The notes under the pieces are model-generated. The model was not told where the DNA came from, made no database searches, and was given only the letters and a program-made list of their open reading frames with translations. This document shows positions 5,514 through 64,000 of a stretch of DNA of 64,000 nt, piece by piece (position 1 is the first letter of the stretch; the number at the start of each line of letters is the position of its first letter). The position numbers and the translations under genes are program-made. The stretch lies in contig OZ024740.1 in NCBI GenBank assembly GCA_964016885.1, positions 259,098,001 through 259,162,000 on the forward strand, given 5' to 3'. The DNA is from Eledone cirrhosa (Eukaryota).

Positions 5514-6002
5514 TTAGAATGTTGAGAAGTGACACACGAGTTGATATATATTAGGAAAATAAGAAAAACAGTACAAAATGCTAATCAGATTTTCTCATAG
5601 AATAACAAAATATTTATTTCTATCTCTCTCTCTCTCTTTCTCTCTTTATCTCTATCTCTCTCCCTCTCTCTCCCTCCTCCTCCTCCTCCTTGGTGGTTAG
5701 GAATAGAAGTTCCTGTGTTCCTTGTTATTGTCAGACAATAGCAGAGAACGAAGTATAGCCTCGGACAGAAACATGAACTTTCTCTCTCAATATGTATGTA
5801 AAACTAATAATTTTTCTTCTCCATTTTATTATGAAATATGCAACTTAACTGCACTTTGCACTTTCGCTGTTGAAAAAGCATATACTGCTGAAACCGGTAC
5901 CACGATTAAATGCGGAATACCCACTATATAAATAAATGTTTTGATATTATACTGAAAAAATCCCTCCGGCATTTTCTACTGTATTATTTTCCTTTTTACT
6001 AA

Positions 6003-14443: not shown

Positions 14444-14444
<1 letters not shown>
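14280..14444 (-). mobile_element. Fold-back element, family I (copies 28718-28920, 51738-51919, 54190-54380; fragments 3775-3825, 28990-29080, 40620-40680)
   Basis: Shared gagtactcaatacttagggtagtagagtgggtaatagga followed by a terminal palindrome ending in (TA)n. Confidence 0.85.
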
Positions 14445-14517
<73 letters not shown>

Positions 14518-14519
<2 letters not shown>

Positions 14520-14927
14520 CAGAAGGGATATTCAATTTGTTGGTAATTCAACAAATATAAACCCGACAAGTTTTCTGGAGTATAATATTCAATGATATTA
14601 AATAAATAGAAACTATATTTATAAAAGCATATTTATTCTATTATATATATTTCAAGGGTACCAAAACTTTGGTACGCTTTCATCAGATAAAATACAAAGT
14701 GTGTTTTATAAATTTTGACATAGCCAAGGAACATACCTTAACGGTTGGAGCTTTCCTTGGATAGACTATTCAAGGAAAACTTCAACCGTTAAGGTATGTT
14801 CCTTGGCTATGTCAAAATTTATAAAACACACTTTGTATTTTATCTGATGAAAGCGTACCAAAGTTTTGGTACCCTTGAAATATATATAATAGAATGAATA
14901 TGGTTTTATAAATATAGTTTCCATTTA
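14518..14927 (-). mobile_element. Fold-back hammerhead element, family L (second copy ~41012-41190), abutting the tandem array
   Basis: Inverted repeat 14603-14927 centred ~14765; unique tail to (TA)n at 14517. Confidence 0.85.
14837..14895 (+). ncRNA. Type-I hammerhead ribozyme (family L; mirror copy ~14635-14695 on minus)
   Basis: Stem I attttat/atagaat; CTGATGA 14844; stem II aag-c-gtacca-aagttt-tggtac-c-ctt; GAAA 14877; palindromic stem III ATATATAT; AUA site. Confidence 0.88.
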
Positions 14928-17900
14928 AATCGTATGGTTGATTGTAGACTTGTTCTATATGTGACGGTATTTTAACGATAGTTATAGCTCTGATTCATCT
15001 GAATTATTGAGCCCTCTGCCGCTCATATCGGATTTCGTTTTTCGTTAACTCGTGCGCCGATTTTTCGATACTCGATCTTTCTAATATATTTAGCTCTGGA
15101 CATAGCTATCCACCAGTTAATTTTATTGCTCATATTTTGTCGATTCTATTGAGTGATGAATAGCTTTTGTTTTATTTTAACATGTCTATTGAGCACTCTA
15201 ATTCGATATGTGTATTTCCACATTCACTCGAATTTTTTTTCGCGGATATAGGGGTCATCTCCCTTGTCTAATGCCATGTGCGTTTTTCACCGCTAGTTGA
15301 CTCCTTTGCCGCCAGGATAAAACTCGTTGACAACGTAAACTCCATTCCACTTATTCTAGTAGGCTTTTATATATTTATATGTGAGCTGATAGAGTACTGT
15401 CTAAGGATTTACAGAAACCCATGAAGCTAGATTTAACACCTTTCTAGTGGGTCCGGGTATGATTTTACATTCATTTAAATTATTGACGTATTGTTTTATT
15501 GATATTTTTTATCTGTTTGGCCCGAATCTTCCTTTATCGATTTTAAATCGTATGGTTGATTGTAGACTTGTTCTATATGTGACGGTATTTTAACGATAGT
15601 TATAGCTCTGATTCATCTGAATTATTGAGCCCTCTGCCGCTCATATCGGATTTCGTTTTTCGTTAACTCGTGCGCCGATTTTTCGATACTCGATCTTTCT
15701 AATATATTTAGCTCTGGACATAGCTATCCACCAGTTAATTTTATTGCTCATATTTTGTCGATTCTATTGAGTGATGAATAGCTTTTGTTTTATTTTAACA
15801 TGTCTATTGAGCACTCTAATTCGATATGTGTATTTCCACATTCACTCGAATTTTTTTTCGCGGATATAGGGGTCATCTCCCTTGTCTAATGCCATGTGCG
15901 TTTTTCACCGCTAGTTGACTCCTTTGCCGCCAGGATAAAACTCGTTGACAACGTAAACTCCATTCCACTTATTCTAGTAGGCTTTTATATATTTATATGT
16001 GAGCTGATAGAGTACTGTCTAAGGATTTACAGAAACCCATGAAGCTAGATTTAACACCTTTCTAGTGGGTCCGGGTATGATTTTACATTCATTTAAATTA
16101 TTGACGTATTGTTTTATTGATATTTTTTATCTGTTTGGCCCGAATCTTCCTTTATCGATTTTAAATCGTATGGTTGATTGTAGACTTGTTCTATATGTGA
16201 CGGTATTTTAACGATAGTTATAGCTCTGATTCATCTGAATTATTGAGCCCTCTGCCGCTCATATCGGATTTCGTTTTTCGTTAACTCGTGCGCCGATTTT
16301 TCGATACTCGATCTTTCTAATATATTTAGCTCTGGACATAGCTATCCACCAGTTAATTTTATTGCTCATATTTTGTCGATTCTATTGAGTGATGAATAGC
16401 TTTTGTTTTATTTTAACATGTCTATTGAGCACTCTAATTCGATATGTGTATTTCCACATTCACTCGAATTTTTTTTCGCGGATATAGGGGTCATCTCCCT
16501 TGTCTAATGCCATGTGCGTTTTTCACCGCTAGTTGACTCCTTTGCCGCCAGGATAAAACTCGTTGACAACGTAAACTCCATTCCACTTATTCTAGTAGGC
16601 TTTTATATATTTATATGTGAGCTGATAGAGTACTGTCTAAGGATTTACAGAAACCCATGAAGCTAGATTTAACACCTTTCTAGTGGGTCCGGGTATGATT
16701 TTACATTCATTTAAATTATTGACGTATTGTTTTATTGATATTTTTTATCTGTTTGGCCCGAATCTTCCTTTATCGATTTTAAATCGTATGGTTGATTGTA
16801 GACTTGTTCTATATGTGACGGTATTTTAACGATAGTTATAGCTCTGATTCATCTGAATTATTGAGCCCTCTGCCGCTCATATCGGATTTCGTTTTTCGTT
16901 AACTCGTGCGCCGATTTTTCGATACTCGATCTTTCTAATATATTTAGCTCTGGACATAGCTATCCACCAGTTAATTTTATTGCTCATATTTTGTCGATTC
17001 TATTGAGTGATGAATAGCTTTTGTTTTATTTTAACATGTCTATTGAGCACTCTAATTCGATATGTGTATTTCCACATTCACTCGAATTTTTTTTCGCGGA
17101 TATAGGGGTCATCTCCCTTGTCTAATGCCATGTGCGTTTTTCACCGCTAGTTGACTCCTTTGCCGCCAGGATAAAACTCGTTGACAACGTAAACTCCATT
17201 CCACTTATTCTAGTAGGCTTTTATATATTTATATGTGAGCTGATAGAGTACTGTCTAAGGATTTACAGAAACCCATGAAGCTAGATTTAACACCTTTCTA
17301 GTGGGTCCGGGTATGATTTTACATTCATTTAAATTATTGACGTATTGTTTTATTGATATTTTTTATCTGTTTGGCCCGAATCTTCCTTTATCGATTTTAA
17401 ATCGTATGGTTGATTGTAGACTTGTTCTATATGTGACGGTATTTTAACGATAGTTATAGCTCTGATTCATCTGAATTATTGAGCCCTCTGCCGCTCATAT
17501 CGGATTTCGTTTTTCGTTAACTCGTGCGCCGATTTTTCGATACTCGATCTTTCTAATATATTTAGCTCTGGACATAGCTATCCACCAGTTAATTTTATTG
17601 CTCATATTTTGTCGATTCTATTGAGTGATGAATAGCTTTTGTTTTATTTTAACATGTCTATTGAGCACTCTAATTCGATATGTGTATTTCCACATTCACT
17701 CGAATTTTTTTTCGCGGATATAGGGGTCATCTCCCTTGTCTAATGCCATGTGCGTTTTTCACCGCTAGTTGACTCCTTTGCCGCCAGGATAAAACTCGTT
17801 GACAACGTAAACTCCATTCCACTTATTCTAGTAGGCTTTTATATATTTATATGTGAGCTGATAGAGTACTGTCTAAGGATTTACAGAAACCCATGAAGCT

Positions 17901-20900
17901 AGATTTAACACCTTTCTAGTGGGTCCGGGTATGATTTTACATTCATTTAAATTATTGACGTATTGTTTTATTGATATTTTTTATCTGTTTGGCCCGAATC
18001 TTCCTTTATCGATTTTAAATCGTATGGTTGATTGTAGACTTGTTCTATATGTGACGGTATTTTAACGATAGTTATAGCTCTGATTCATCTGAATTATTGA
18101 GCCCTCTGCCGCTCATATCGGATTTCGTTTTTCGTTAACTCGTGCGCCGATTTTTCGATACTCGATCTTTCTAATATATTTAGCTCTGGACATAGCTATC
18201 CACCAGTTAATTTTATTGCTCATATTTTGTCGATTCTATTGAGTGATGAATAGCTTTTGTTTTATTTTAACATGTCTATTGAGCACTCTAATTCGATATG
18301 TGTATTTCCACATTCACTCGAATTTTTTTTTCGCGGATATAGGGGTCATCTCCCTTGTCTAATGCCATGTGCGTTTTTCACCGCTAGTTGACTCCTTTGC
18401 CGCCAGGATAAAACTCGTTGACAACGTAAACTCCATTCCACTTATTCTAGTAGGCTTTTATATATTTATATGTGAGCTGATAGAGTACTGTCTAAGGATT
18501 TACAGAAACCCATGAAGCTAGATTTAACACCTTTCTAGTGGGTCCGGGTATGATTTTACATTCATTTAAATTATTGACGTATTGTTTTATTGATATTTTT
18601 TATCTGTTTGGCCCGAATCTTCCTTTATCGATTTTAAATCGTATGGTTGATTGTAGACTTGTTCTATATGTGACGGTATTTTAACGATAGTTATAGCTCT
18701 GATTCATCTGAATTATTGAGCCCTCTGCCGCTCATATCGGATTTCGTTTTTCGTTAACTCGTGCGCCGATTTTTCGATACTCGATCTTTCTAATATATTT
18801 AGCTCTGGACATAGCTATCCACCAGTTAATTTTATTGCTCATATTTTGTCGATTCTATTGAGTGATGAATAGCTTTTGTTTTATTTTAACATGTCTATTG
18901 AGCACTCTAATTCGATATGTGTATTTCCACATTCACTCGAATTTTTTTTCGCGGATATAGGGGTCATCTCCCTTGTCTAATGCCATGTGCGTTTTTCACC
19001 GCTAGTTGACTCCTTTGCCGCCAGGATAAAACTCGTTGACAACGTAAACTCCATTCCACTTATTCTAGTAGGCTTTTATATATTTATATGTGAGCTGATA
19101 GAGTACTGTCTAAGGATTTACAGAAACCCATGAAGCTAGTTTTAACACCTTTCTAGTGGGTCCGGGTATGATTTTACATTCATTTAAATTATTGACGTAT
19201 TGTTTTATTGATATTTTTTATCTGTTTGGCCCGAATCTTCCTTTATCGATTTTAAATCGTATGGTTGATTGTAGACTTGTTCTATATGTGACGGTATTTT
19301 AACGATAGTTATAGCTCTGATTCATCTGAATTATTGAGCCCTCTGCCGCTCATATCGGATTTCGTTTTTCGTTAACTCGTGCGCCGATTTTTCGATACTC
19401 GATCTTTCTAATATATTTAGCTCTGGACATAGCTATCCACCAGTTAATTTTATTGCTCATATTTTGTCGATTCTATTGAGTGATGAATAGCTTTTGTTTT
19501 ATTTTAACATGTCTATTGAGCACTCTAATTCGATATGTGTATTTCCACATTCACTCGAATTTTTTTTCGCGGATATAGGGGTCATCTCCCTTGTCTAATG
19601 CCATGTGCGTTTTTCACCGCTAGTTGACTCCTTTGCCGCCAGGATAAAACTCGTTGACAACGTAAACTCCATTCCACTTATTCTAGTAGGCTTTTATATA
19701 TTTATATGTGAGCTGATAGAGTACTGTCTAAGGATTTACAGAAACCCATGAAGCTAGATTTAACACCTTTCTAGTGGGTCCGGGTATGATTTTACATTCA
19801 TTTAAATTATTGACGTATTGTTTTATTGATATTTTTTATCTGTTTGGCCCGAATCTTCCTTTATCGATTTTAAATCGTATGGTTGATTGTAGACTTGTTC
19901 TATATGTGACGGTATTTTAACGATAGTTATAGCTCTGATTCATCTGAATTATTGAGCCCTCTGCCGCTCATATCGGATTTCGTTTTTCGTTAACTCGTGC
20001 GCCGATTTTTCGATACTCGATCTTTCTAATATATTTAGCTCTGGACATAGCTATCCACCAGTTAATTTTATTGCTCATATTTTGTCGATTCTATTGAGTG
20101 ATGAATAGCTTTTGTTTTATTTTAACATGTCTATTGAGCACTCTAATTCGATATGTGTATTTCCACATTCACTCGAATTTTTTTTCGCGGATATAGGGGT
20201 CATCTCCCTTGTCTAATGCCATGTGCGTTTTTCACCGCTAGTTGACTCCTTTGCCGCCAGGATAAAACTCGTTGACAACGTAAACTCCATTCCACTTATT
20301 CTAGTAGGCTTTTATATATTTATATGTGAGCTGATAGAGTACTGTCTAAGGATTTACAGAAACCCATGAAGCTAGATTTAACACCTTTCTAGTGGGTCCG
20401 GGTATGATTTTACATTCATTTAAATTATTGACGTATTGTTTTATTGATATTTTTTATCTGTTTGGCCCGAATCTTCCTTTATCGATTTTAAATCGTATGG
20501 TTGATTGTAGACTTGTTCTATATGTGACGGTATTTTAACGATAGTTATAGCTCTGATTCATCTGAATTATTGAGCCCTCTGCCGCTCATATCGGATTTCG
20601 TTTTTCGTTAACTCGTGCGCCGATTTTTCGATACTCGATCTTTCTAATATATTTAGCTCTGGACATAGCTATCCACCAGTTAATTTTATTGCTCATATTT
20701 TGTCGATTCTATTGAGTGATGAATAGCTTTTGTTTTATTTTAACATGTCTATTGAGCACTCTAATTCGATATGTGTATTTCCACATTCACTCGAATTTTT
20801 TTTTCGCGGATATAGGGGTCATCTCCCTTGTCTAATGCCATGTGCGTTTTTCACCGCTAGTTGACTCCTTTGCCGCCAGGATAAAACTCGTTGACAACGT

Positions 20901-23900
20901 AAACTCCATTCCACTTATTCTAGTAGGCTTTTATATATTTATATGTGAGCTGATAGAGTACTGTCTAAGGATTTACAGAAACCCATGAAGCTAGATTTAA
21001 CACCTTTCTAGTGGGTCCGGGTATGATTTTACATTCATTTAAATTATTGACGTATTGTTTTATTGATATTTTTTATCTGTTTGGCCCGAATCTTCCTTTA
21101 TCGATTTTAAATCGTATGGTTGATTGTAGACTTGTTCTATATGTGACGGTATTTTAACGATAGTTATAGCTCTGATTCATCTGAATTATTGAGCCCTCTG
21201 CCGCTCATATCGGATTTCGTTTTTCGTTAACTCGTGCGCCGATTTTTCGATACTCGATCTTTCTAATATATTTAGCTCTGGACATAGCTATCCACCAGTT
21301 AATTTTATTGCTCATATTTTGTCGATTCTATTGAGTGATGAATAGCTTTTGTTTTATTTTAACATGTCTATTGAGCACTCTAATTCGATATGTGTATTTC
21401 CACATTCACTCGAATTTTTTTTCGCGGATATAGGGGTCATCTCCCTTGTCTAATGCCATGTGCGTTTTTCACCGCTAGTTGACTCCTTTGCCGCCAGGAT
21501 AAAACTCGTTGACAACGTAAACTCCATTCCACTTATTCTAGTAGGCTTTTATATATTTATATGTGAGCTGATAGAGTACTGTCTAAGGATTTACAGAAAC
21601 CCATGAAGCTAGATTTAACACCTTTCTAGTGGGTCCGGGTATGATTTTACATTCATTTAAATTATTGACGTATTGTTTTATTGATATTTTTTATCTGTTT
21701 GGCCCGAATCTTCCTTTATCGATTTTAAATCGTATGGTTGATTGTAGACTTGTTCTATATGTGACGGTATTTTAACGATAGTTATAGCTCTGATTCATCT
21801 GAATTATTGAGCCCTCTGCCGCTCATATCGGATTTCGTTTTTCGTTAACTCGTGCGCCGATTTTTCGATACTCGATCTTTCTAATATATTTAGCTCTGGA
21901 CATAGCTATCCACCAGTTAATTTTATTGCTCATATTTTGTCGATTCTATTGAGTGATGAATAGCTTTTGTTTTATTTTAACATGTCTATTGAGCACTCTA
22001 ATTCGATATGTGTATTTCCACATTCACTCGAATTTTTTTTCGCGGATATAGGGGTCATCTCCCTTGTCTAATGCCATGTGCGTTTTTCACCGCTAGTTGA
22101 CTCCTTTGCCGCCAGGATAAAACTCGTTGACAACGTAAACTCCATTCCACTTATTCTAGTAGGCTTTTATATATTTATATGTGAGCTGATAGAGTACTGT
22201 CTAAGGATTTACAGAAACCCATGAAGCTAGATTTAACACCTTTCTAGTGGGTCCGGGTATGATTTTACATTCATTTAAATTATTGACGTATTGTTTTATT
22301 GATATTTTTTATCTGTTTGGCCCGAATCTTCCTTTATCGATTTTAAATCGTATGGTTGATTGTAGACTTGTTCTATATGTGACGGTATTTTAACGATAGT
22401 TATAGCTCTGATTCATCTGAATTATTGAGCCCTCTGCCGCTCATATCGGATTTCGTTTTTCGTTAACTCGTGCGCCGATTTTTCGATACTCGATCTTTCT
22501 AATATATTTAGCTCTGGACATAGCTATCCACCAGTTAATTTTATTGCTCATATTTTGTCGATTCTATTGAGTGATGAATAGCTTTTGTTTTATTTTAACA
22601 TGTCTATTGAGCACTCTAATTCGATATGTGTATTTCCACATTCACTCGAATTTTTTTTCGCGGATATAGGGGTCATCTCCCTTGTCTAATGCCATGTGCG
22701 TTTTTCACCGCTAGTTGACTCCTTTGCCGCCAGGATAAAACTCGTTGACAACGTAAACTCCATTCCACTTATTCTAGTAGGCTTTTATATATTTATATGT
22801 GAGCTGATAGAGTACTGTCTAAGGATTTACAGAAACCCATGAAGCTAGATTTAACACCTTTCTAGTGGGTCCGGGTATGATTTTACATTCATTTAAATTA
22901 TTGACGTATTGTTTTATTGATATTTTTTATCTGTTTGGCCCGAATCTTCCTTTATCGATTTTAAATCGTATGGTTGATTGTAGACTTGTTCTATATGTGA
23001 CGGTATTTTAACGATAGTTATAGCTCTGATTCATCTGAATTATTGAGCCCTCTGCCGCTCATATCGGATTTCGTTTTTCGTTAACTCGTGCGCCGATTTT
23101 TCGATACTCGATCTTTCTAATATATTTAGCTCTGGACATAGCTATCCACCAGTTAATTTTATTGCTCATATTTTGTCGATTCTATTGAGTGATGAATAGC
23201 TTTTGTTTTATTTTAACATGTCTATTGAGCACTCTAATTCGATATGTGTATTTCCACATTCACTCGAATTTTTTTTCGCGGATATAGGGGTCATCTCCCT
23301 TGTCTAATGCCATGTGCGTTTTTCACCGCTAGTTGACTCCTTTGCCGCCAGGATAAAACTCGTTGACAACGTAAACTCCATTCCACTTATTCTAGTAGGC
23401 TTTTATATATTTATATGTGAGCTGATAGAGTACTGTCTAAGGATTTACAGAAACCCATGAAGCTAGATTTAACACCTTTCTAGTGGGTCCGGGTATGATT
23501 TTACATTCATTTAAATTATTGACGTATTGTTTTATTGATATTTTTTATCTGTTTGGCCCGAATCTTCCTTTATCGATTTTAAATCGTATGGTTGATTGTA
23601 GACTTGTTCTATATGTGACGGTATTTTAACGATAGTTATAGCTCTGATTCATCTGAATTATTGAGCCCTCTGCCGCTCATATCGGATTTCGTTTTTCGTT
23701 AACTCGTGCGCCGATTTTTCGATACTCGATCTTTCTAATATATTTAGCTCTGGACATAGCTATCCACCAGTTAATTTTATTGCTCATATTTTGTCGATTC
23801 TATTGAGTGATGAATAGCTTTTGTTTTATTTTAACATGTCTATTGAGCACTCTAATTCGATATGTGTATTTCCACATTCACTCGAATTTTTTTTCGCGGA

Positions 23901-26900
23901 TATAGGGGTCATCTCCCTTGTCTAATGCCATGTGCGTTTTTCACCGCTAGTTGACTCCTTTGCCGCCAGGATAAAACTCGTTGACAACGTAAACTCCATT
24001 CCACTTATTCTAGTAGGCTTTTATATATTTATATGTGAGCTGATAGAGTACTGTCTAAGGATTTACAGAAACCCATGAAGCTAGATTTAACACCTTTCTA
24101 GTGGGTCCGGGTATGATTTTACATTCATTTAAATTATTGACGTATTGTTTTATTGATATTTTTTATCTGTTTGGCCCGAATCTTCCTTTATCGATTTTAA
24201 ATCGTATGGTTGATTGTAGACTTGTTCTATATGTGACGGTATTTTAACGATAGTTATAGCTCTGATTCATCTGAATTATTGAGCCCTCTGCCGCTCATAT
24301 CGGATTTCGTTTTTCGTTAACTCGTGCGCCGATTTTTCGATACTCGATCTTTCTAATATATTTAGCTCTGGACATAGCTATCCACCAGTTAATTTTATTG
24401 CTCATATTTTGTCGATTCTATTGAGTGATGAATAGCTTTTGTTTTATTTTAACATGTCTATTGAGCACTCTAATTCGATATGTGTATTTCCACATTCACT
24501 CGAATTTTTTTTCGCGGATATAGGGGTCATCTCCCTTGTCTAATGCCATGTGCGTTTTTCACCGCTAGTTGACTCCTTTGCCGCCAGGATAAAACTCGTT
24601 GACAACGTAAACTCCATTCCACTTATTCTAGTAGGCTTTTATATATTTATATGTGAGCTGATAGAGTACTGTCTAAGGATTTACAGAAACCCATGAAGCT
24701 AGATTTAACACCTTTCTAGTGGGTCCGGGTATGATTTTACATTCATTTAAATTATTGACGTATTGTTTTATTGATATTTTTTATCTGTTTGGCCCGAATC
24801 TTCCTTTATCGATTTTAAATCGTATGGTTGATTGTAGACTTGTTCTATATGTGACGGTATTTTAACGATAGTTATAGCTCTGATTCATCTGAATTATTGA
24901 GCCCTCTGCCGCTCATATCGGATTTCGTTTTTCGTTAACTCGTGCGCCGATTTTTCGATACTCGATCTTTCTAATATATTTAGCTCTGGACATAGCTATC
25001 CACCAGTTAATTTTATTGCTCATATTTTGTCGATTCTATTGAGTGATGAATAGCTTTTGTTTTATTTTAACATGTCTATTGAGCACTCTAATTCGATATG
25101 TGTATTTCCACATTCACTCGAATTTTTTTTCGCGGATATAGGGGTCATCTCCCTTGTCTAATGCCATGTGCGTTTTTCACCGCTAGTTGACTCCTTTGCC
25201 GCCAGGATAAAACTCGTTGACAACGTAAACTCCATTCCACTTATTCTAGTAGGCTTTTATATATTTATATGTGAGCTGATAGAGTACTGTCTAAGGATTT
25301 ACAGAAACCCATGAAGCTAGATTTAACACCTTTCTAGTGGGTCCGGGTATGATTTTACATTCATTTAAATTATTGACGTATTGTTTTATTGATATTTTTT
25401 ATCTGTTTGGCCCGAATCTTCCTTTATCGATTTTAAATCGTATGGTTGATTGTAGACTTGTTCTATATGTGACGGTATTTTAACGATAGTTATAGCTCTG
25501 ATTCATCTGAATTATTGAGCCCTCTGCCGCTCATATCGGATTTCGTTTTTCGTTAACTCGTGCGCCGATTTTTCGATACTCGATCTTTCTAATATATTTA
25601 GCTCTGGACATAGCTATCCACCAGTTAATTTTATTGCTCATATTTTGTCGATTCTATTGAGTGATGAATAGCTTTTGTTTTATTTTAACATGTCTATTGA
25701 GCACTCTAATTCGATATGTGTATTTCCACATTCACTCGAATTTTTTTTCGCGGATATAGGGGTCATCTCCCTTGTCTAATGCCATGTGCGTTTTTCACCG
25801 CTAGTTGACTCCTTTGCCGCCAGGATAAAACTCGTTGACAACGTAAACTCCATTCCACTTATTCTAGTAGGCTTTTATATATTTATATGTGAGCTGATAG
25901 AGTACTGTCTAAGGATTTACAGAAACCCATGAAGCTAGATTTAACACCTTTCTAGTGGGTCCGGGTATGATTTTACATTCATTTAAATTATTGACGTATT
26001 GTTTTATTGATATTTTTTATCTGTTTGGCCCGAATCTTCCTTTATCGATTTTAAATCGTATGGTTGATTGTAGACTTGTTCTATATGTGACGGTATTTTA
26101 ACGATAGTTATAGCTCTGATTCATCTGAATTATTGAGCCCTCTGCCGCTCATATCGGATTTCGTTTTTCGTTAACTCGTGCGCCGATTTTTCGATACTCG
26201 ATCTTTCTAATATATTTAGCTCTGGACATAGCTATCCACCAGTTAATTTTATTGCTCATATTTTGTCGATTCTATTGAGTGATGAATAGCTTTTGTTTTA
26301 TTTTAACATGTCTATTGAGCACTCTAATTCGATATGTGTATTTCCACATTCACTCGAATTTTTTTTCGCGGATATAGGGGTCATCTCCCTTGTCTAATGC
26401 CATGTGCGTTTTTCACCGCTAGTTGACTCCTTTGCCGCCAGGATAAAACTCGTTGACAACGTAAACTCCATTCCACTTATTCTAGTAGGCTTTTATATAT
26501 TTATATGTGAGCTGATAGAGTACTGTCTAAGGATTTACAGAAACCCATGAAGCTAGATTTAACACCTTTCTAGTGGGTCCGGGTATGATTTTACATTCAT
26601 TTAAATTATTGACGTATTGTTTTATTGATATTTTTTATCTGTTTGGCCCGAATCTTCCTTTATCGATTTTAAACCGTATGGTTGATTGTAGACTTGTTCT
26701 ATATGTGACGGTATTTTAACGATAGTTATAGCTCTGATTCATCTGAATTATTGAGCCCTCTGCCGCTCATATCGGATTTCGTTTTTCGTTAACTCGTGCG
26801 CCGATTTTTCGATACTCGATCTTTCTAATATATTTAGCTCTGGACATAGCTATCCACCAGTTAATTTTATTGCTCATATTTTGTCGATTCTATTGAGTGA

Positions 26901-28676
26901 TGAATAGCTTTTGTTTTATTTTAACATGTCTATTGAGCACTCTAATTCGATATGTGTATTTCCACATTCACTCGAATTTTTTTTCGCGGATATAGGGGTC
27001 ATCTCCCTTGTCTAATGCCATGTGCGTTTTTCACCGCTAGTTGACTCCTTTGCCGCCAGGATAAAACTCGTTGACAACGTAAACTCCATTCCACTTATTC
27101 TAGTAGGCTTTTATATATTTATATGTGAGCTGATAGAGTACTGTCTAAGGATTTACAGAAACCCATGAAGCTAGATTTAACACCTTTCTAGTGGGTCCGG
27201 GTATGATTTTACATTCATTTAAATTATTGACGTATTGTTTTATTGATATTTTTTATCTGTTTGGCCCGAATCTTCCTTTATCGATTTTAAATCGTATGGT
27301 TGATTGTAGACTTGTTCTATATGTGACGGTATTTTAACGATAGTTATAGCTCTGATTCATCTGAATTATTGAGCCCTCTGCCGCTCATATCGGATTTCGT
27401 TTTTCGTTAACTCGTGCGCCGATTTTTCGATACTCGATCTTTCTAATATATTTAGCTCTGGACATAGCTATCCACCAGTTAATTTTATTGCTCATATTTT
27501 GTCGATTCTATTGAGTGATGAATAGCTTTTGTTTTATTTTAACATGTCTATTGAGCACTCTAATTCGATATGTGTATTTCCACATTCACTCGAATTTTTT
27601 TTTCGCGGATATAGGGGTCATCTCCCTTGTCTAATGCCATGTGCGTTTTTCACCGCTAGTTGACTCCTTTGCCGCCAGGATAAAACTCGTTGACAACGTA
27701 AACTCCATTCCACTTATTCTAGTAGGCTTTTATATATTTATATGTGAGCTGATAGAGTACTGTCTAAGGATTTACAGAAACCCATGAAGCTAGATTTAAC
27801 ACCTTTCTAGTGGGTCCGGGTATGATTTTACATTCATTTAAATTATTGACGTATTGTTTTATTGATATTTTTTATCTGTTTGGCCCGAATCTTCCTTTAT
27901 CGATTTTAAATCGTATGGTTGATTGTAGACTTGTTCTATATGTGACGGTATTTTAACGATAGTTATAGCTCTGATTCATCTGAATTATTGAGCCCTCTGC
28001 CGCTCATATCGGATTTCGTTTTTCGTTAACTCGTGCGCCGATTTTTCGATACTCGATCTTTCTAATATATTTAGCTCTGGACATAGCTATCCACCAGTTA
28101 ATTTTATTGCTCATATTTTGTCGATTCTATTGAGTGATGAATAGCTTTTGTTTTATTTTAACATGTCTATTGAGCACTCTAATTCGATATGTGTATTTCC
28201 ACATTCACTCGAATTTTTTTTCGCGGATATAGGGGTCATCTCCCTTGTCTAATGCCATGTGCGTTTTTCACCGCTAGTTGACTCCTTTGCCGCCAGGATA
28301 AAACTCGTTGACAACGTAAACTCCATTCCACTTATTCTAGTAGGCTTTTATATATTTATATGTGAGCTGATAGAGTACTGTCTAAGGATTTACAGAAACC
28401 CATGAAGCTAGATTTAACACCTTTCTAGTGGGTCCGGGTATGATTTTACATTCATTTAAATTATTGACGTATTGTTTTATTGATATTTTTTATCTGTTTG
28501 GCCCGAATCTTCCTTTATCGATTTTAAATCGTATGGTTGATTGTAGACTTGTTCTATATGTGACGGTATTTTAACGATAGTTATAGCTCTGATTCATCTG
28601 AATTATTGAGCCCTCTGCCGCTCATATCGGATTTCGTTTTTCGTTAACTCGTGCGCCGATTTTTCGATACTCGATC

Positions 28677-28688
<12 letters not shown>
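14924..28688. repeat. Tandem array: 22 full copies plus ~160 bp of a 618-bp unit, >99.9% identical
   Basis: cgtatggttg recurs at 14931, 15549, 16167 ... 28530. Only five variants seen by eye: T8>T9 near 18330, 20800 and 27600; A>T at 19140; T>C at 26674. No ORF in the track. Confidence 0.98.
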
Positions 28689-28717
<29 letters not shown>

Positions 28718-40749: not shown

Positions 40750-41216
40750 AAATACAAGTATTTCTGCTCCTAACAGTAAAGTTTTAGTAGCTGATGATTG
40801 AGTGTTTTATCTTATGGTTCCTGCCATTTCCATTTTCACTCATGATACAGCTATTTAGAATGCCTAAATCTGGGGAATTTACCATTCTTAAGTAAATATT
40901 TTTCTTCGCTATCCGATTTGAAAATAATAGAGATGTTACCATCTATCTAAGCTCTCTGCCTTGCGATCCGACTTTTCTTTCGCAATGCATCTATCTATAT
41001 ATATATATATATCAATGATATTAATAAATGGAAAGTATATTTATAAAACCATATTTATTCTATTATGTATATTTCAAGGGTACCAAAATTTGGTACGCTT
41101 TCATCAGATAAAATACAAAGTTTGATTTATAAGTATTGACATATCCAGGAATGAAACCTTAACGGTTCAAGTTTTACCTAAATATCCCTTTGCTTATATA
41201 TTTATATACATATATA

Positions 41217-42925: not shown

Positions 42926-43218
42926 GGAATTTTACCTGCCCTAGATAGAGAGATAGATACATACATATATAAATAGGGAGACACAAAGCAGGCTTTGTTT
43001 AGAAGCGGCTAGCGAAATTGAAAATTAGGTGGTAATATTTGCTTACGCTGTATTTGACTAAATAGAATTAGTCTGTTAGTTGGGATTTTAAAAGGATGAG
43101 TATTGACGTACATGGGACACAAACCCACATCTTTGGTTTGCCGGACCAATGTGTAACCATTACACCAACATACCACCCATGGTTCCCTCCATTCAATTAG
43201 AAGCTATATAACCATAGC

Positions 43219-57159: not shown

Positions 57160-58180
57160 AAATAAAAATGAAGAGCAACGACAAGAAAGACTCCAAAAAC
57201 AAAGAAAAATAACAGCGAAATATAAGCAAAAGGAATCAGAAGAACAAAGGTCAAAAAGGCCTGTTGATGATAGGACAAGGAAAGCAACTTTTCGTCAAGA
57301 GGAATAAGATGTGCTAAACTACAGCACAAAACAGAGAGGATGTATCAGATGCACAAAGATCATCAACAAAGAATAAGTACACAGAATAGACAGGCTTAAT
57401 CAGAGGAACAAAGATCAAAAAGTCTTGCTGGAGATAGGATAATGGAAGCAACTATTCATCAAGAGGAATCAAATGTACGAAAACCATGACGACAGCAAAT
57501 GGAGAAAAATAGAGCAGCTCAAAGGCGACATGAAGAAACTGAAGCTCGAACAACTCAAAGGCTATGTGTATAGAGACCAAAAACAGACGATTTATGATTC
57601 AAAAAGGTTTCCAAGTGGAACTTTGCTGCTTTTAGTTACAATTCACACCAAAACTATGCCCCAGAACCTTTAATTCGAATTTGCTCAATGAACAAAATTT
57701 GTCCAAATTGTGGTACTAAAAATGGGATGTGTCAACTGGATTGTGTTGTTTGAATGGACAGATTAAGTTTAGATTATTACCTGAAACACCAGAACCCTTG
57801 ACGGAACTGTTGATTGGTGCAACAACTGAATCAAAACACTTTCTTCAAAATATCTACAGGTACAATAATGCATTACAAATGACATCATTTGGTGTAAATG
57901 TCATCCGTGAAGGTGCCTTTATACCCACTTTCAAGATCCAATGGCAAATGTACCATAGAATTGGGCCACGTCAGCCACTTTCAGAAGAACCAAAATATTT
58001 ACAATTGTATTTCATCAGTGATATAAAAACCCAAGCACAGACAAAATATGAAAGGAATAATGAAACTAAATATGAAATCATGTTGCAACTAAAAGCTAGA
58101 AGTTTCAAATAAACCATAGACAAATTTTTTAAAGAAATTTCCTTATTTTCTTTAACACGGCCAATGCCGGGTGCTTCTGC

Positions 58181-58247: not shown

Positions 58248-58413
58248 GGGAAGAAGACGCACGAGGTGACGGAGGTCATGAAATCGCTCCCGTAAGTTTT
58301 GAATTTTTAACATATTTAAATCATTTGTGAAATAACAACTCTTAGTACAAATGCTACGTAAAGCACCCGGCTTGAGCCCCAAAAAAATTCGGACCCAAAA
58401 TATATTGTTATAA

Positions 58414-59055
58414 GGCTCAAATATTCAAATATTCAACTTTGTATTGTACACTGTATATCCAAAAAAAAAATGGCTATAAATGGAAGAAGAAGAAACCCCC
58501 CCCCCTCTCCTCTGGCTACACTATATAGGACAGCTAAACTCACCAACACCAGAAACTAGATACACCACCCACCCCATCATCTGTGTACACTAAACACAAC
58601 AGCATTTTCACCTTCACCGCCACCGCTCACTACGGCCATCATTACCACCACTATCCCATCACCGCCGCCACCACCCCTTGACTCCTTCACTGCTGCTGCC
58701 ACCGCTACAGCACCATCACTACAGTAATACGGCTCAAATATTCAAATATTCAACTTTGTATTGTACACTGTATATCCAAAAAAAAATAAAATGGCTATAA
58801 ATGGAAGAAGAAGAACCCCCCCCCCTCCTCTCCTCTGGCTACACTATATAGGACAGCGAAACTCACCAACACCAGAAACTAGATACACCACCCACCCCAT
58901 CATCTGTGTACACTAAACACAACAGCATTTTCACCTTCACCGCCACCGCTCACTACGGCCATCATTACCACCACTATCCCATCACCGCCGCCACCACCCC
59001 CTGACTCCTTCACTGCTGCTGCCACCGCTACAGCACCATCACTACAGTAATACGG
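58414..59055 (+). repeat. ~317-bp tandem duplication in the putative 5' UTR
   Basis: ggctcaaatattcaaatattc at 58414 and 58731; the two copies are nearly identical. Confidence 0.95.
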
Positions 59056-59624
59056 TCGCATCACCGCCACCACTGCCTCGGTATCGACATCACCACCACC
59101 ACTGTCTCAGTATCGCCAACGCCGCCAGTCTCTGCTGGCTACCACTTCCACATTATAGAATTCCTACTACTAACAAAGAGGAAGGCATCAAAATATATAG
59201 ATAGACTCAAAAGAAAAAAGAAAAAACAAACAACAAAAGCAGCACAGCAACAACAGTAAAAAACGAGAAAAACAGAGAAAAACAAAAACAAAAAAAGAAA
59301 CCCCAAAAACGTAAAGAAAATAAGAATGAAGAGAGAAGCAGGCGGACGGACAGAGAAGAGGAGGGAAAAAGTAAAACTTAAAAAACAAAAACTAAGTCAG
59401 ACATTCGAATACTACATTACAATTAAACTTATGCTTATTCATTTTTGGGGCCCTTTCTGCCCGTGTGTTTGTTTGTTTATGTGTGTCCGTATACAGCGTG
59501 GTGATAATGCCACACAAGGGCCAAGTGGGATGGCGGATCCACAGATGGCTATGTAAACATACATTCGCCAATCCTCGATAAGAGTGTTTAAATATCGAAC
59601 ATAAACAGTTCGAATAACGGTGAA

Positions 59625-62600
59625 ATGGAGACTAGAACGTCATGTGACAGACTCTCACCCAACAGGTGCCCCCTGGCTCAGCAGCAGGAACCTGACTGTC
59701 AACCAAATACTGCTGATGTTGGAGGAAGAAGAAGAAGGAAAGGGGCCAGAACCAACTGGACGAAAGAATTGAATAGAACTGTTATGCAATGCTACCTGAA
59801 AAGTAACCCCAAGGAGAGGGGCTACAGGAGACGGATGCATAACATCTGGAACGAGATTGGTTTATTTAAATTAGATGAACAAAAATTGGCCGGGCAGGCT
59901 CGGGTAATAAGAACTAATGGGTGGATAAGCGAGCTGGAACTGGAGGAACTGAGCAGAGAGAATGGCTTGGAGATGGCGGGTGTAGTATGCCAGACAAGCG
60001 AGCCGGCGGGAAATGAAGGTGAGGAGGTCCTGAGAACGGAGGAACCACCCGAAGCAGACAATGATCTGAATACTGAGATAAATAATACCTGGAACAGAGA
60101 TACGGCCACTGAGGAGATGAATGCTGACGGGCTAGGACAAGATTCGGTTGACATCCTAAATTTAGTGGTAGATGAGTTGAACAATGATAGTGGGAGACCT
60201 ATGAACCTAAGATTTGTAGACAGGAAAAAGTTAAAAGAAACAACAGCTAAGGTAAACAAAGTCATCCCATACCTTGAGGCGAGGAGTCTTCACCAGTGCA
60301 ACAATATCCTCAAAGCAACAGCAAATACGGTGAGGAAACTACTTGGTATAAAAGCGAGAGGAAACAACAGACAAGAAAGAGCAGAGCCGTGGTGGAAGAA
60401 GCGACTGAGTGGGCAAATCGGGGAAATGAGAAATGACATAGGAAAGCTTGAGTCACTACTGAATGGGACACTAAAAAACATAGGCACTAAAAATAGACTG
60501 GAAATAAAATACAAAACTAGGAGTAAAAAGCTAAATATTATCATAGAGGAATTGAAGCAACGCATTGTAGCAAAGAGTGCCAAAATCAGGCGATACGAGA
60601 ACAGAGTCAGTCAGTATAAACAGAACCGCATGTTCGACAACAACCAGAAGATGCTGTTTGGACAGCTTGAGGGGAAAGAAAGAGGCAACGACTTGATCCC
60701 TGGGGCGGAACAAGCTAAAACATTCTGGAGAGGAATATGGGAGCAGGATGTTAGACACAATGCCCAGGCAGGGTGGATTGAGACAGTACAGAGGGAGATC
60801 GGTGAGCAGGCACAGCAACAGACTGATTTGAGTATCACAGTTGAAACTCTTAAGGGGCAAGCCAAAAAACTAACCAACTGGAAATCACCAGGCCCAGATG
60901 GTGTGCAGGGGTATTGGATTAAACATTTAACATCCCTCCACCCGAAGCTGACGGCCATGTTCAATGACTGCTTGGTGTCGGGTGAGGTGCCAGAGTGGTT
61001 GACAAAAGGTACCACAGTTCTGATAATGAAAGACCGAATCAAGGGTAATGATGTTACCAACTATAGACCTATCACATGTCTGCCCGTAATGTGGAAACTG
61101 TTGACGAGCATTGTGTCTGAGGAAATCTACCATCACCTCCACACAAACAACTTGTTGCCGGACGAACAGAAAGGATGCCGAAAGAAGTCACGTGGTACAA
61201 AGGACCAGTTGCTTATTGATAAGATGGTAATGGGGAATTGCAGGAGGAGACACACTGATCTTGCCATGGGATGGATAGACTACAGAAAGGCATTTGACAT
61301 GGTGCCTCATTCCTGGATCACCAAAAGCCTGGAGATCTTCAGGGTGGCAGATAACATCAGACAGTTGCTGGGCAGGAGTATGGGGTCCTGGGAGACAGAG
61401 TTGACATCAACTGGAGTATCCTTGGGAAGCGTGAAGATCAAGAGAGGTATCTTCCAGGGAGATAGCCTGTCCCCTCTGTTGTTTGTCCTTGCCCTGATGC
61501 CCTTGACCATTATGCTGCGAAAAGTGAGAGCAGGATACAAGTTGGGAAGGGGAGAGCTTACCATCAATCACCTCCTCTTCATGGACGATCTTAAGCTCTT
61601 CGGGAAAAGTGAGAAGGAGTTGGATGTGCTTGTTGACACTGTCCGTATTTTCAGCAGTGATATATGTATGCAGTTTGGTATTGGTAAATGTGGTGTCATT
61701 GTGATGAGGAGGGGTAGGTTGAGCAGAAGTAACGAGATCCAGATACCAACAGGTGAGATGATAAAGGAAATTGACTCTGAGGAAGGATACAAGTATTTGG
61801 GCGTTCTGGAGGCTGATGGCATAAAGAACAAAAAAATGAAGGAATTGTTAAGAACTGAATACATTCGGAGAGTAAGGAGCGTATTGAAGTCACATCTGAA
61901 CAGCAGAAATGCCATAAGCGCAGTAAATTCCCGAGCTGTGTCTATTATTAGGTACAGTGCGGGAATTCTGAGATGGAATGTTGCTGAACAAAAAGAAATG
62001 GATAGGAAGACTAGGAAGCTATTGACTATCTACAACATGTTCCACAAGAGGAGTGATGTCGATAGACTCTACCTAAGGAGATCTGAGGGTGGAAGAGGTC
62101 TTATCAGCATAGAGGACTGTGTTCAGATGGAGAAAAACAACCTATACAAATACGTGACCTATAGTAAGGAGCCAATGCTCAGAGCTGTACTGAAGGAGGG
62201 GACAGTAGGCCAGGGGATACCCAAGGAGGAAATAACATCAAGGAGGAAGAGCAGCCTTAAGGGAAAATCCCTTCATAGTACCTTCTTTGAGAAAACTGAA
62301 TTTAGAGATCCACAGACATGGAACTGGTTGAGAAGAGGAGACCTCAAAAAGGCTACAGAAGGAATGCTAATGGCTGCGCAGGAGCAGGCCCTCAAAACGA
62401 AGTGGTTGAAGCACCATATCTACAAGGAGGAGGCTAGCCCACTGTGCAGGATCTGTGGAGAGAGAGAGGAGACTGTGGCTCACATTGTGTCCGAGTGTAA
62501 ACACCTAGCCCAGACCCACTATAAGGGCTGGAGACACGATGTGATGGGCAGGGTGATCCACTGGCACCTGTGCAAAGTAAACAATCTACCACATTCTGAG

Positions 62601-63017
62601 AAATGGTATGAGCATAGGCCAGAGGCGGTGATGGAGAACAGTCAGGTGAAGGTGCTGTGGGATTTTAGGATACAGACGGACAAAAAACTGGAACACAATA
62701 GACCTGACCTGGTGGTTGTGGACAAAGAAAAAAGATCGTGCCTGATTGTGGATGTGGCCTGCCCGTTCGACACGAGAGTGCAAGAGAAGGAGAGGGAGAA
62801 AATTAACCGATACCAGGACCTAAAGTGGGAGGTGAAAAGGATTTGGAACAGCCATGAAGTCAAAGTGATCCCGATTGTCATAGGCGCACTGGGGACTATC
62901 TCCAAAGGTTTCCAGGGATGGTTAAAGAAAATCGTCCCCTTCACGCTTTTTGGAACGCTTCAAAAGGCATGCTTGCTTGGAACGGCAAGAACCCTCCGAT
63001 ACGTCGTGAATATCTGA
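59625..63017 (+). CDS. Reverse transcriptase with CCHC zinc knuckle and restriction-like (PD..D) endonuclease, 1130 aa
   Basis: NWTKELN..VMQCY..RGYRRRMH.IW N-terminus; NWKSPGPDG, NYRPITCL, QKGCR..SRGTKDQL, WIDYRKAFD, RGIFQGDSLSPLLF, HLLFMDD, YKYLG; CRIC...ETVAHIVSEC; RHD; RPDLVV...IVDV.CP; K..RY.DL. Confidence 0.96.
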   Translation: METRTSCDRLSPNRCPLAQQQEPDCQPNTADVGGRRRRKGARTNWTKELNRTVMQCYLKSNPKERGYRRRMHNIWNEIGLFKLDEQKLAGQARVIRTNGWISELELEELSRENGLEMAGVVCQTSEPAGNEGEEVLRTEEPPEADNDLNTEINNTWNRDTATEEMNADGLGQDSVDILNLVVDELNNDSGRPMNLRFVDRKKLKETTAKVNKVIPYLEARSLHQCNNILKATANTVRKLLGIKARGNNRQERAEPWWKKRLSGQIGEMRNDIGKLESLLNGTLKNIGTKNRLEIKYKTRSKKLNIIIEELKQRIVAKSAKIRRYENRVSQYKQNRMFDNNQKMLFGQLEGKERGNDLIPGAEQAKTFWRGIWEQDVRHNAQAGWIETVQREIGEQAQQQTDLSITVETLKGQAKKLTNWKSPGPDGVQGYWIKHLTSLHPKLTAMFNDCLVSGEVPEWLTKGTTVLIMKDRIKGNDVTNYRPITCLPVMWKLLTSIVSEEIYHHLHTNNLLPDEQKGCRKKSRGTKDQLLIDKMVMGNCRRRHTDLAMGWIDYRKAFDMVPHSWITKSLEIFRVADNIRQLLGRSMGSWETELTSTGVSLGSVKIKRGIFQGDSLSPLLFVLALMPLTIMLRKVRAGYKLGRGELTINHLLFMDDLKLFGKSEKELDVLVDTVRIFSSDICMQFGIGKCGVIVMRRGRLSRSNEIQIPTGEMIKEIDSEEGYKYLGVLEADGIKNKKMKELLRTEYIRRVRSVLKSHLNSRNAISAVNSRAVSIIRYSAGILRWNVAEQKEMDRKTRKLLTIYNMFHKRSDVDRLYLRRSEGGRGLISIEDCVQMEKNNLYKYVTYSKEPMLRAVLKEGTVGQGIPKEEITSRRKSSLKGKSLHSTFFEKTEFRDPQTWNWLRRGDLKKATEGMLMAAQEQALKTKWLKHHIYKEEASPLCRICGEREETVAHIVSECKHLAQTHYKGWRHDVMGRVIHWHLCKVNNLPHSEKWYEHRPEAVMENSQVKVLWDFRIQTDKKLEHNRPDLVVVDKEKRSCLIVDVACPFDTRVQEKEREKINRYQDLKWEVKRIWNSHEVKVIPIVIGALGTISKGFQGWLKKIVPFTLFGTLQKACLLGTARTLRYVVNI

Positions 63018-63103
63018 GGCTGCAGGTAGTGGCTTGATATTCAATCCAACGGACTTTCCAGTTAACCAACATCAATGACTGAGATTCAAGGAATAACAAT
63101 AAC

Positions 63104-63132
<29 letters not shown>

Positions 63133-63137
<5 letters not shown>

Positions 63138-64000
63138 TCCCTCCACCTGAAACTGACAACCATGTTCAATGACTGCTTGACGTCAGGTGAGGTACCAGAG
63201 TGGTTGACAAAAGGTACCACAGTTCTGATAATGAAAGACCGAATCAAGGGTAATGATGTTACCAACTATAGACCTATCACATGTCTGTCCGTAATGTGGA
63301 AACTGTTGACGAGCATTGTGTCTGAGGAAATCTACCATCACCTCCACACAAATAACTTGTTACCGGACGAACAGAAAGGATGCCGAAAGAAGTCACGTGG
63401 TACAAAGGACCAGTTACTTATTGATAAGATGGTAATGGGGAATTGCAGGAGGAGACACACTGATCTTGCCATGGGATGGATAGAATACAGAAAGGCATTT
63501 GACATGGTGCCTCATTCTTGGATCACCAAAAGCCTGGAGATCTTCAAGGTGGCAAATAACATCAGACAGTTGTTGGGCAAGAGTATGAGGTCCTGGGAAA
63601 CAGAGTTGACATCAACTGGAGAATCCTTGGGAAGCGTGAAGATCAAGAGAGGTATCTTCCAGGGAGATAGCCTGTCCCCTCTGTTGTTTGTCCTTGCCCT
63701 GGTGCCCCTGACCAGTGTACTGCGAAAAGTGAGAGCAGGATACGGGTTGGGAAAGGGAGGGATTACCATCAATCACCTCCTCTTCATGGACGATCATAAG
63801 CTCTTCGGGAAGAGTGAGAAGGAGTTGGATGTGCTTGTTGACACTGTCCGTATTTTCAGCAGTGATATATGTATGCAGTTTGGTATTAGTAAGTGTGGAG
63901 TCATTGTGATGAGGAGGGGTAGGTTGAGCAGAAGTAACGGAATCCAGATACCAACAGGTGAGATGATAAAGGAAATTGACTCTGAGGAAGGATACAAGTA
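63133..64000 (+). pseudogene. 5'-truncated, diverged second R4/Dong copy (runs off the window)
   Basis: Matches the first copy from ~60929 onward; catalytic WIDY>WIEY, plus FMDDL>FMDDH. Confidence 0.93.

Follow-up and report, generated by a model that had tools for sequence, protein, structure and literature searches.

The genome of the cephalopod Eledone cirrhosa is 3.0 Gb in size and rich in microsatellites, and in one stretch of 64,000 nucleotides (nt) on contig OZ024740.1 (GenBank assembly GCA_964016885.1, positions 259,098,001 to 259,162,000; hereafter the window) it carries a 13.8-kb head-to-tail array of a 618-nt repeat, which lies between a fold-back element named element L and a (TA)n tract. 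We consider it likely that this array was produced by target-primed rolling-circle reverse transcription, in which the enzyme of a Penelope-like element (PLE) copied one + strand RNA circle of 618 nt. The family to which the repeat belongs is best read as a large variant of the non-LTR retrozymes (LTR, long terminal repeat), dispersed through the genome as non-coding insertions truncated at their 5′ ends. An earlier reading, made from the letters of the window alone (the sequence-only reading), had already proposed a rolling-circle origin, with another direction of synthesis, another template strand and another role for element L.

The array comprises 22.26 units, the full units being 618 nt long and three of them 619 nt in the assembly sequence. 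Differences from the majority unit number five, namely three single-T additions within one T run and two substitutions, so the count of about 22.25 units with five differences given by the sequence-only reading holds. The substitution load is thus 2 per 13.6 kb (~0.015%), and the one variable site that units of this array share is a homopolymer slip. The same reading was also correct that the unit is confined to the array within the window, that the switch between element L and the array falls in a 4-nt microhomology (TTTA), and that the array leaves into (TA)n by microhomology. GC content of the unit is ~0.36, below the 45% that bounds non-LTR retrozymes, and no stop-to-stop frame of at least 120 amino acids (aa) was found inside the array, as expected of a non-coding element. 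The head-to-tail unit joint was recovered at high depth in an independent sequencing run (X3) and at low depth in two others (X1, X9), which supports tandem units in general and not the number 22; run X3 also gave thousands of contigs for both element L and the 618-nt unit. Among the contig pieces listed, none spans the junction of L with the array, which is no evidence either way. Four sequencing runs gave low-depth fragments or short look-alikes only and have no bearing on horizontal transfer.

A search of the genome itself returned 557 candidates, and all 17 loci that were scored carry near-identical units with differing left ends. The 3′ end falls on the same base as the right end of the window's array in 16 of these 17 other arrays, while the 17th enters an assembly gap. 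Indeed, the junction of this unit end with (TA)n has 752 exact matches in the genome and 0 in the control. Monomers of this main subfamily measure 615–618 nt; two sister subfamilies, ~79% identical and more distant, have monomers of 582–624 nt, each with a fixed end of its own in the homologous position (1,472 and 223 matches), and the core motif common to the subfamilies occurs 3,682 times in the genome versus 27 times in the control. What had been taken for a unique new satellite grown from a passenger circle is therefore a mobile family with thousands of insertions, one sampled array of which, at 26.6 units, is longer than that of the window. The 3′ ends are fixed, at (TA)n, and the left ends variable, and the array is one member of a dispersed family and not a one-off. 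The PLE-type character ascribed to the junctions is supported.

A single fixed 3′ end was seen in the 16 usable arrays; a later sample of 92 insertions, taken from the first 100 listed junctions (the eight omitted being the window itself, four already sampled and the last three), was selected on that end. In this sample insert lengths run continuously from 40 nt to 26.6 units with a median of ~690 nt: 38 insertions are at most one unit long and 54 longer, 29 reach at least two units and 9 at least ten. Two of the inserts are open-ended. Many left ends meet (TA)n via a few common bases, mostly TA, and some 5′ junctions adjoin non-TA sequence. At four loci (L031, L032, L115, L073) the left flanks are short non-TA fragments, some from other small repeats, that directly abut the truncated 5′ ends, and these could be either template-switch captures or older neighbours. 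Inverted copies are rare (1/109 insertions); the fold-back array L038 (C4:374053567-374055350) turns at a natural hairpin in stem II of the fold described below and continues for ~1.4 units on the opposite strand. At L220 (C2:185073500-185083000) a 3.9-kb segmental tandem duplication holds an insertion of subfamily B with stuttered short repeats at its 5′ end.

Target-primed reverse transcription (TPRT) leaves this pattern of one end fixed and the other ragged, so that the right end of the array is its start and the complementary DNA (cDNA) grew leftward. The family thus shows a fixed internal 3′ start, 5′ truncation and a microsatellite target, as PLE-type insertions do, along with the head-to-tail tandem units and genome-wide dispersal of retrozymes. 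The direction is the reverse of that in the sequence-only reading, whose left-to-right priming and minus-strand template give way to the right end fixed genome-wide and to an error spectrum that points to a + strand template.

The sequence-only reading had found no canonical hammerhead ribozyme in the unit and had guessed that an unrecognised ribozyme might be present. The first statement stands insofar as the unit has no CUGANGA core and Rfam scans of the window, of 14500–16400 and of six diverged loci returned no ribozyme family, but a non-canonical hammerhead is predicted in it, and the guess is supported by this type I variant with covarying stems. RNAalifold was run on 21 full monomers from three subfamilies (alignment A1) that had not been selected on hammerhead motifs, and it gave a three-way junction on the + strand with a stem I of 5 bp, a core UUGAN(A/G)A with one extra base, and a stem III that starts with A-U and C-G and includes an inserted hairpin, the three stems standing in type I order around the core. 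UGA, GAAA and GUC are present in 21/21 monomers, and the window's copy folds into the three-way junction without constraint. The core has U4 G5 A6, A9, G12 A13 A14, the A15.1-U16.1 pair and GUC as NUH triplet, with A9 in every one of the 39 distinct cores, out of 49 found, whose stem I is intact. Across the alignment 94.7% of cells are paired, and two-sided changes number 41 against 15.2 in shuffles. A descriptor written after the motif had been seen has a single match in the unit, on the + strand, with none on the − strand or in 2,000 shuffles. Because of its U3-A8 core, the mismatch in stem II, the branched stem II and the long stem III, CUGANGA descriptors miss this hammerhead.

Other structures were tried and rejected. 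A first hammerhead reading used the CUGAUAGA stretch inside stem II and was dropped, since that stretch is not conserved. Look-alikes of an HDV-like (hepatitis delta virus-like) ribozyme fail by hand across the subfamilies, judged by the nested P1–P4 pseudoknot that we take to define the class. The same holds for look-alikes of the hairpin ribozyme with its invariant G8/A9 and loop B (PMC8216279; this and the papers cited below are used from their accessible parts). The whole-circle fold is only mildly stable on either strand (z ~ −2.2, 30 shuffles), so the circle is no viroid-like rod. Splice-donor-like bases do lie three nt past the predicted cut (GUAUG, GUAAG or GUAAA at window 15457-15461 and homologous sites) with YAG 8–9 nt upstream. 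A splice-donor or lariat origin was rejected, as no branch-type, spliced or micro-exon-duplicated junction occurs among the sampled loci, and the AG/GU pattern matches shown (6/8) are unrelated DNA or a point variant and give a lariat no support.

The truncated ends point to the predicted cut site as well. In the main subfamily 16 of 89 closed 5′ ends fall 0–24 nt after GUC (p = 5e-7 versus uniform; 17/90 before one 5′ end at an assembly gap was dropped), one of them exactly at the cut and not adjoining a TA tract, and the next 25-nt bin has 0 ends despite more TA trimers. Stops at the cut site during the first lap amount to 12 of the 83 insertions at risk, other bins mostly having 0–5%, and in subfamily B five of 29–30 ends lie 0–24 nt after GUC (p = 0.007). 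Linear monomers cut at GUC would match inserts of 223–243 nt, which is the common size, and a pause of the reverse transcriptase (RT) at the folded junction would give 5′ ends that look alike.

Variation within arrays was compared in 35 arrays of at least three units, comprising 306 units, and yielded 42 substitutions private to one unit, with 10 columns in which a change is shared. Relative to the window's unit, array haplotypes vary at up to 41 columns; 16 arrays have one majority haplotype in common, with changes restricted to single arrays. Ten substitutions are each found in every unit compared (up to the last six) at one locus and at none of the other 69. The longest arrays are the cleanest, those of 26, 18 and 16 units having 0 private substitutions each. 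This clonality suggests that each array was copied from one template. Read in element orientation, the private changes include 13 T>C versus 0 A>G (p = 0.003) and 7 G>A versus 2 C>T (p = 0.07), and the T>C changes lie on both genome strands (5 and 8). Wobble mispairing by RT on a + strand template gives a bias in the T>C direction. Later mutation of double-stranded DNA would be symmetric, and the strand bias thus argues against it. Editing of adenosine to inosine was considered and left no signal, since only 1/10 array-fixed private changes is A>G.

In five arrays a change recurs at one site, and in four of these it appears only after clean laps. Counted from the priming end, L092 has A for 19 laps, after which five of its last seven units have T; the four units of L031 carry A, C, T and T in that order; L046 has G for four laps and then T in 5/9, one unit showing another change close by; L232 runs T, T, T, C, C; and in L140 three states are scattered across 13 units. 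The late-lap changes look as if the template molecule had been damaged during copying. A>T is expected from an abasic site and G>T from 8-oxoguanine in the template. Moreover, all 306 units have the 17 nt that surround the cut site intact, which a ligated circle fits better than repeated template jumps do. The clonal arrays and lap-wise changes together support the part of the sequence-only reading by which the array was formed in one step from a one-unit template through repeated reverse transcription.

A likely course of events can be drawn from these features. Genomic arrays would be transcribed, and the type I hammerhead variant, whose structure is supported by covariation, would cut the transcript after GUC, whereupon the monomer would be ligated to a circle. 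A PLE endonuclease/RT would nick (TA)n and begin the cDNA 247 nt downstream of the cut, at one constant internal position. An RT on a linear monomer would run off at the cut site and leave the 223–243-nt inserts, and on circles it would lap from once to more than 26 times, which would account for the observed lengths and end cluster. Short microhomology, mostly TA, links the end of the cDNA to the target, as observed at the junctions; in the window the cDNA would have joined the end of the older fold-back L, which lies beside the TA tract, with the last 14 nt of the short arm of L being lost. We lean slightly towards the more general view that ~600-nt circles closed by hammerheads that descriptors miss are copied by rolling-circle TPRT in vivo, and that long arrays are a lap-by-lap record of one RNA, including damage midway (after lap 19 of 26 in L092). 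The step from circle to tandem cDNA has been proposed for such elements and is not shown in the papers that we found.

A partner enzyme may be sought in two PLE-like families with many near-identical intact open reading frames (ORFs) in the genome, of 777 and 714 aa. The 777-aa protein has Pfam matches to RT and GIY-YIG, and its family ends in (TA)n at two 3′ sites separated by ~35 nt (seven of 18 copies at each, with 4 reading through) and has a UUGAAAA...GAAA...GUC hammerhead, again with U3-A8. These (TA)n ends and the hammerhead make it the first candidate partner. This family (L316, L317; C4:119553000-119562900; C9:16453000-16462900) is very young, with dozens of identical ORFs, and has a 427-aa frame upstream and a spacer filled with microsatellite. 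The 714-aa protein, which we take to be PLE-like from its motifs, has no Pfam match at all; its family (L318, L319) is active, forms tandems of 4.2–4.3 kb and bears a canonical hammerhead. A 7-mer just after the priming site is common to the unit and the 714-aa family and is not significant. In the window itself, 94-2260 holds a broken ORF without Pfam match, presumably PLE-like with an RT region, a CxxxxCxxC linker and a GIY-YIG-like part, followed by a canonical hammerhead core at 2519 (+); the C-terminal part of this ORF has 26,858 candidates in the genome.

Several observations weigh against this account. The structure of the hammerhead was derived from the same alignment on which its changes were counted, and that alignment consists of three related sequence groups; pairs with a two-sided change number 7 versus 6.1 in shuffles, which is not above chance, stem I varies on one side only, and stem III shows no alternative pair. 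At position 3-8 the 39 distinct cores have U-A in 25, as in the window's copy, with U3.G8 in 11/39 and C3.A8 in 3/39. Owing to an extra A before G12, stem II has an A.A or C.A mismatch at its base, ahead of an invariant G-C pair, so that the closing pair of stem II does not stand directly next to G12, and no account of an added A at this place was found in the literature. The predicted hammerhead may hence be weakly active. As for the 5′ ends, the cluster in subfamily C depends on the method (13/30 by BLAST, 4/30 by a strict k-mer walk, ~8 by hand), and other bins are enriched too, with 11 ends at +125, where TATA offers microhomology, and 8 ends (of 90) at about +200 to +224 after GUC, without TA trimers and near the 3′ hairpin. 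Three shared variants of older arrays, two in L094 and one in L086, lie in neighbouring units, as would fit later duplication at the DNA level. No convincing match came from local alignment of the unit to five untranslated-region stretches taken from three PLE families; in three of the 15 comparisons 1, 4 and 7 of 200 shuffles scored as high. Furthermore, hammerhead cleavage was not needed for PLE insertion in vitro (PMC11167929).

It is conceivable, if unlikely, that the same enzyme and priming acted on a linear template, either a read-through transcript of an array or a cleaved monomer on which the RT jumped repeatedly from the 5′ to the 3′ end. Unprocessed RNA was the main in vitro substrate of the anole PLE (PMC11167929), cut-site 5′ ends also occur after at least one lap (L073, L233, L122, L146), as linear multimers would give, and repeated jumping on one monomer would re-read a lesion too. 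A multimer, however, would transmit the unit-to-unit pattern of its source, yet 16 arrays have one majority haplotype with array-restricted changes, and no scattered multi-state site extends beyond a single array. Template jumps of non-LTR RTs usually leave scars at the junction, whereas the cut site is without scars in every unit compared. Growth in place as DNA, by which about one unit was retrotransposed and then multiplied through unequal crossover, slippage or an extrachromosomal DNA circle, is improbable. Expansion of one inserted copy would likewise produce private variants fixed within an array, and the variants in adjacent units of older arrays suit it; but length is greatest in the youngest arrays, changes inside an array are mostly private and carry a strand bias that double-stranded turnover would not give, three states occur at one site within four units (L031), and the late-lap polarity follows the direction of cDNA synthesis.

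The scheme of the sequence-only reading, in which priming at the left TA tract was followed by copying of L, fold-back, a jump to a minus-strand circle and exit at the right, is very improbable, although the junction from L to the array is seamless over its four common nucleotides and some other 5′ junctions adjoin non-TA sequence too. Against it, the right end is the family's fixed end, and L has a history of its own. Both arms of L carry a CUGAUGA...GAAA minimal hammerhead, and the inverted pair that had been described as an element and its fold-back copy is indeed present, but the arms are not identical, differing at 6/160 positions, and have private changes of 2.0% and 1.2% relative to the majority of 19 other L copies (best matches, one of them poorly aligned). 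Given the fact that the array has ~0.015%, a ~100-fold difference, L is an older, separate insertion. In five other loci (L051, L054, L059, L201, L275) the L arm extends 12–14 nt more and is then followed by (TA)n, so the + arm in the window is 14 nt short, and L is joined to the left end in 0/109 other insertions (17 + 92), with an L copy near two of them, ~500 nt and 6 kb off. A single priming event from L into the circle is not supported, and the simplest history is that the array was inserted later into the TA tract beside L, its 5′ end being resolved by microhomology. A non-autonomous rolling-circle DNA transposon of the Helitron or Replitron type is equally hard to credit. HUH elements are known for one fixed end with tandem run-on, as seen here, but the covarying hammerhead fold, the 5′ ends at the cut site, the wobble-type bias and the snap-back inversion speak for an RNA template.

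The origin of tandem ribozyme repeats is unsettled, with cDNA from primed circles on one side (PMC7229834) and local growth by unequal crossover on the other (bioRxiv 10.64898/2026.07.22.740005). The former describes non-LTR retrozymes of coral, mussel and axolotl, with typical monomers of 150–450 bp and hammerhead-derived circles of 150 to >1000 nt overall, and proposes that a PLE RT makes tandem cDNA from primed circles; the latter, a vertebrate survey, discusses unequal crossover and calls the mechanism still to be elucidated. Like metazoan non-LTR retrozymes, the Eledone family consists of non-coding low-GC tandems with one type I hammerhead per unit, here a predicted one, and with PLEs alongside; unlike them, it has a unit of 615–618 nt and a hammerhead whose core pairs U3 with A8, whose stem II is branched, ~80 nt in size and mismatched at its base, and whose stem III is long. 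Since all testable features of retrozymes but the typical size and the canonical core are present, the family is filed as a retrozyme variant. A fixed internal 3′ end, a stop at the cut site and lap-by-lap errors are not reported in the accessible parts of these two sources. Nor did a literature search that covered few subscription papers find anything on cephalopod retrozymes or lap-wise errors in genomic arrays, and neither is mentioned in the accessible part of an octopus repeat annotation (PMC13282606).

Similar cores and starts have been described among PLEs. PLE hammerheads have been described with U3-A8 cores, such as those of the Cercyon elements of Schistosoma, and with one additional base where stem II begins; the Cercyon motifs are minimal, dimer-type and mostly single within pseudo long terminal repeats (pLTRs) (PMC4209133), whereas the hammerhead of the unit has a stable stem III and an added A before G12 and is present in every unit of long arrays. 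The anole PLE Poseidon initiates internally at AT-rich targets in vitro (PMC11167929), and the present family resembles it in its AT-rich target and fixed start site inside the RNA, the start site of subfamily B having little similarity to the TA target. It differs in that the unit has no ORF, one fixed end and not two adjacent ones was found in the 16 usable arrays, and mirrored two-arm insertions amount to 1/109. MRC1 and other non-autonomous PLEs called Chlamys resemble their autonomous partner at the 3′ end and are without canonical hammerheads (PMC8557442); for the unit no such similarity was found among the three PLE families compared.

Table 1. Features of the array and of element L (positions in the window).
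Feature	Position	Strand	Remarks
(TA)n tract at the 3′ end of the L long arm	14444..14517	.	
Element L, long arm	14518..14764	-	minimal type I hammerhead, core at 14686; older, separate insertion
Element L, inverted short arm	14766..14927	+	core at 14844; ends 14 nt before the end seen in other L copies
Microhomology TTTA (4 nt)	14924..14927	+	joins the truncated 5′ array end to element L
Array insertion	14924..28681	+	5′ partial unit of 159 nt and 22 full units; 615-618-nt hammerhead-bearing repeat
Predicted type I hammerhead variant, first of 22 copies	15322..15458	+	from RNAalifold, pair counts and unconstrained fold
Stem I, core and stem II of this copy	15322-15326/15454-15458; 15327-15334; 15335-15412	+	core UUGACAA plus one extra nt; long branched stem II
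Extra A, GAAA and GUC of this copy	15413; 15414-15417; 15451-15453	+	stem III with inserted hairpin
Predicted self-cleavage and ligation site	15453..15454	+	after GUC; recurs at 618-nt intervals as far as 28434
Fixed 3′ end of the family, putative priming site of reverse transcription	28664..28688	+	unit end = 28681; next 7 nt common to unit and TA tract
(TA)n target tract at the 3′ end of the array	28682..28717	.	

The window holds further small hammerhead-bearing inserts at 2519, 3361/3499, 5328, 5870, 8268, 8881/8895, 9462 and 10172 and, beyond the array, at 41107, 42674, 49815, 52470/52623 and 54962; several of these small inserts are fold-back pairs between (TA)n tracts, and the core of that at 5870 is UUGAAAA. 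A tRNA-like sequence at 43104-43174 (-) scores above the Rfam gathering score. Near the right end of the window, a short ORF at 57720-58112 has no Pfam match and is one that we take to resemble a fragment of a Helitron protein, a 323-bp tandem duplication occupies 58410-59055, and an uninterrupted 1,141-aa RT ORF of non-LTR type with Pfam RVT_1 and zf-RVT spans 59592-63017 (+), with an inverted partial copy at 63066-63998 (-).

The features of this family separate copying of a circle from growth by unequal crossover, and they include a hammerhead variant of stable monomer type, present in thousands of copies and missed by Rfam as well as by searches for patterns. As the template strand, the start site and the likely cut site are fixed to the base, an in vitro test can be designed directly. 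If the view of descriptor-missed circles copied lap by lap is true, the arrays would be direct genomic evidence for the proposed step from circle to DNA and an in vivo read-out of the processivity (>16 kb) and fidelity (~1e-4) of a PLE RT, and cryptic retrozymes would be under-counted in animal genomes.

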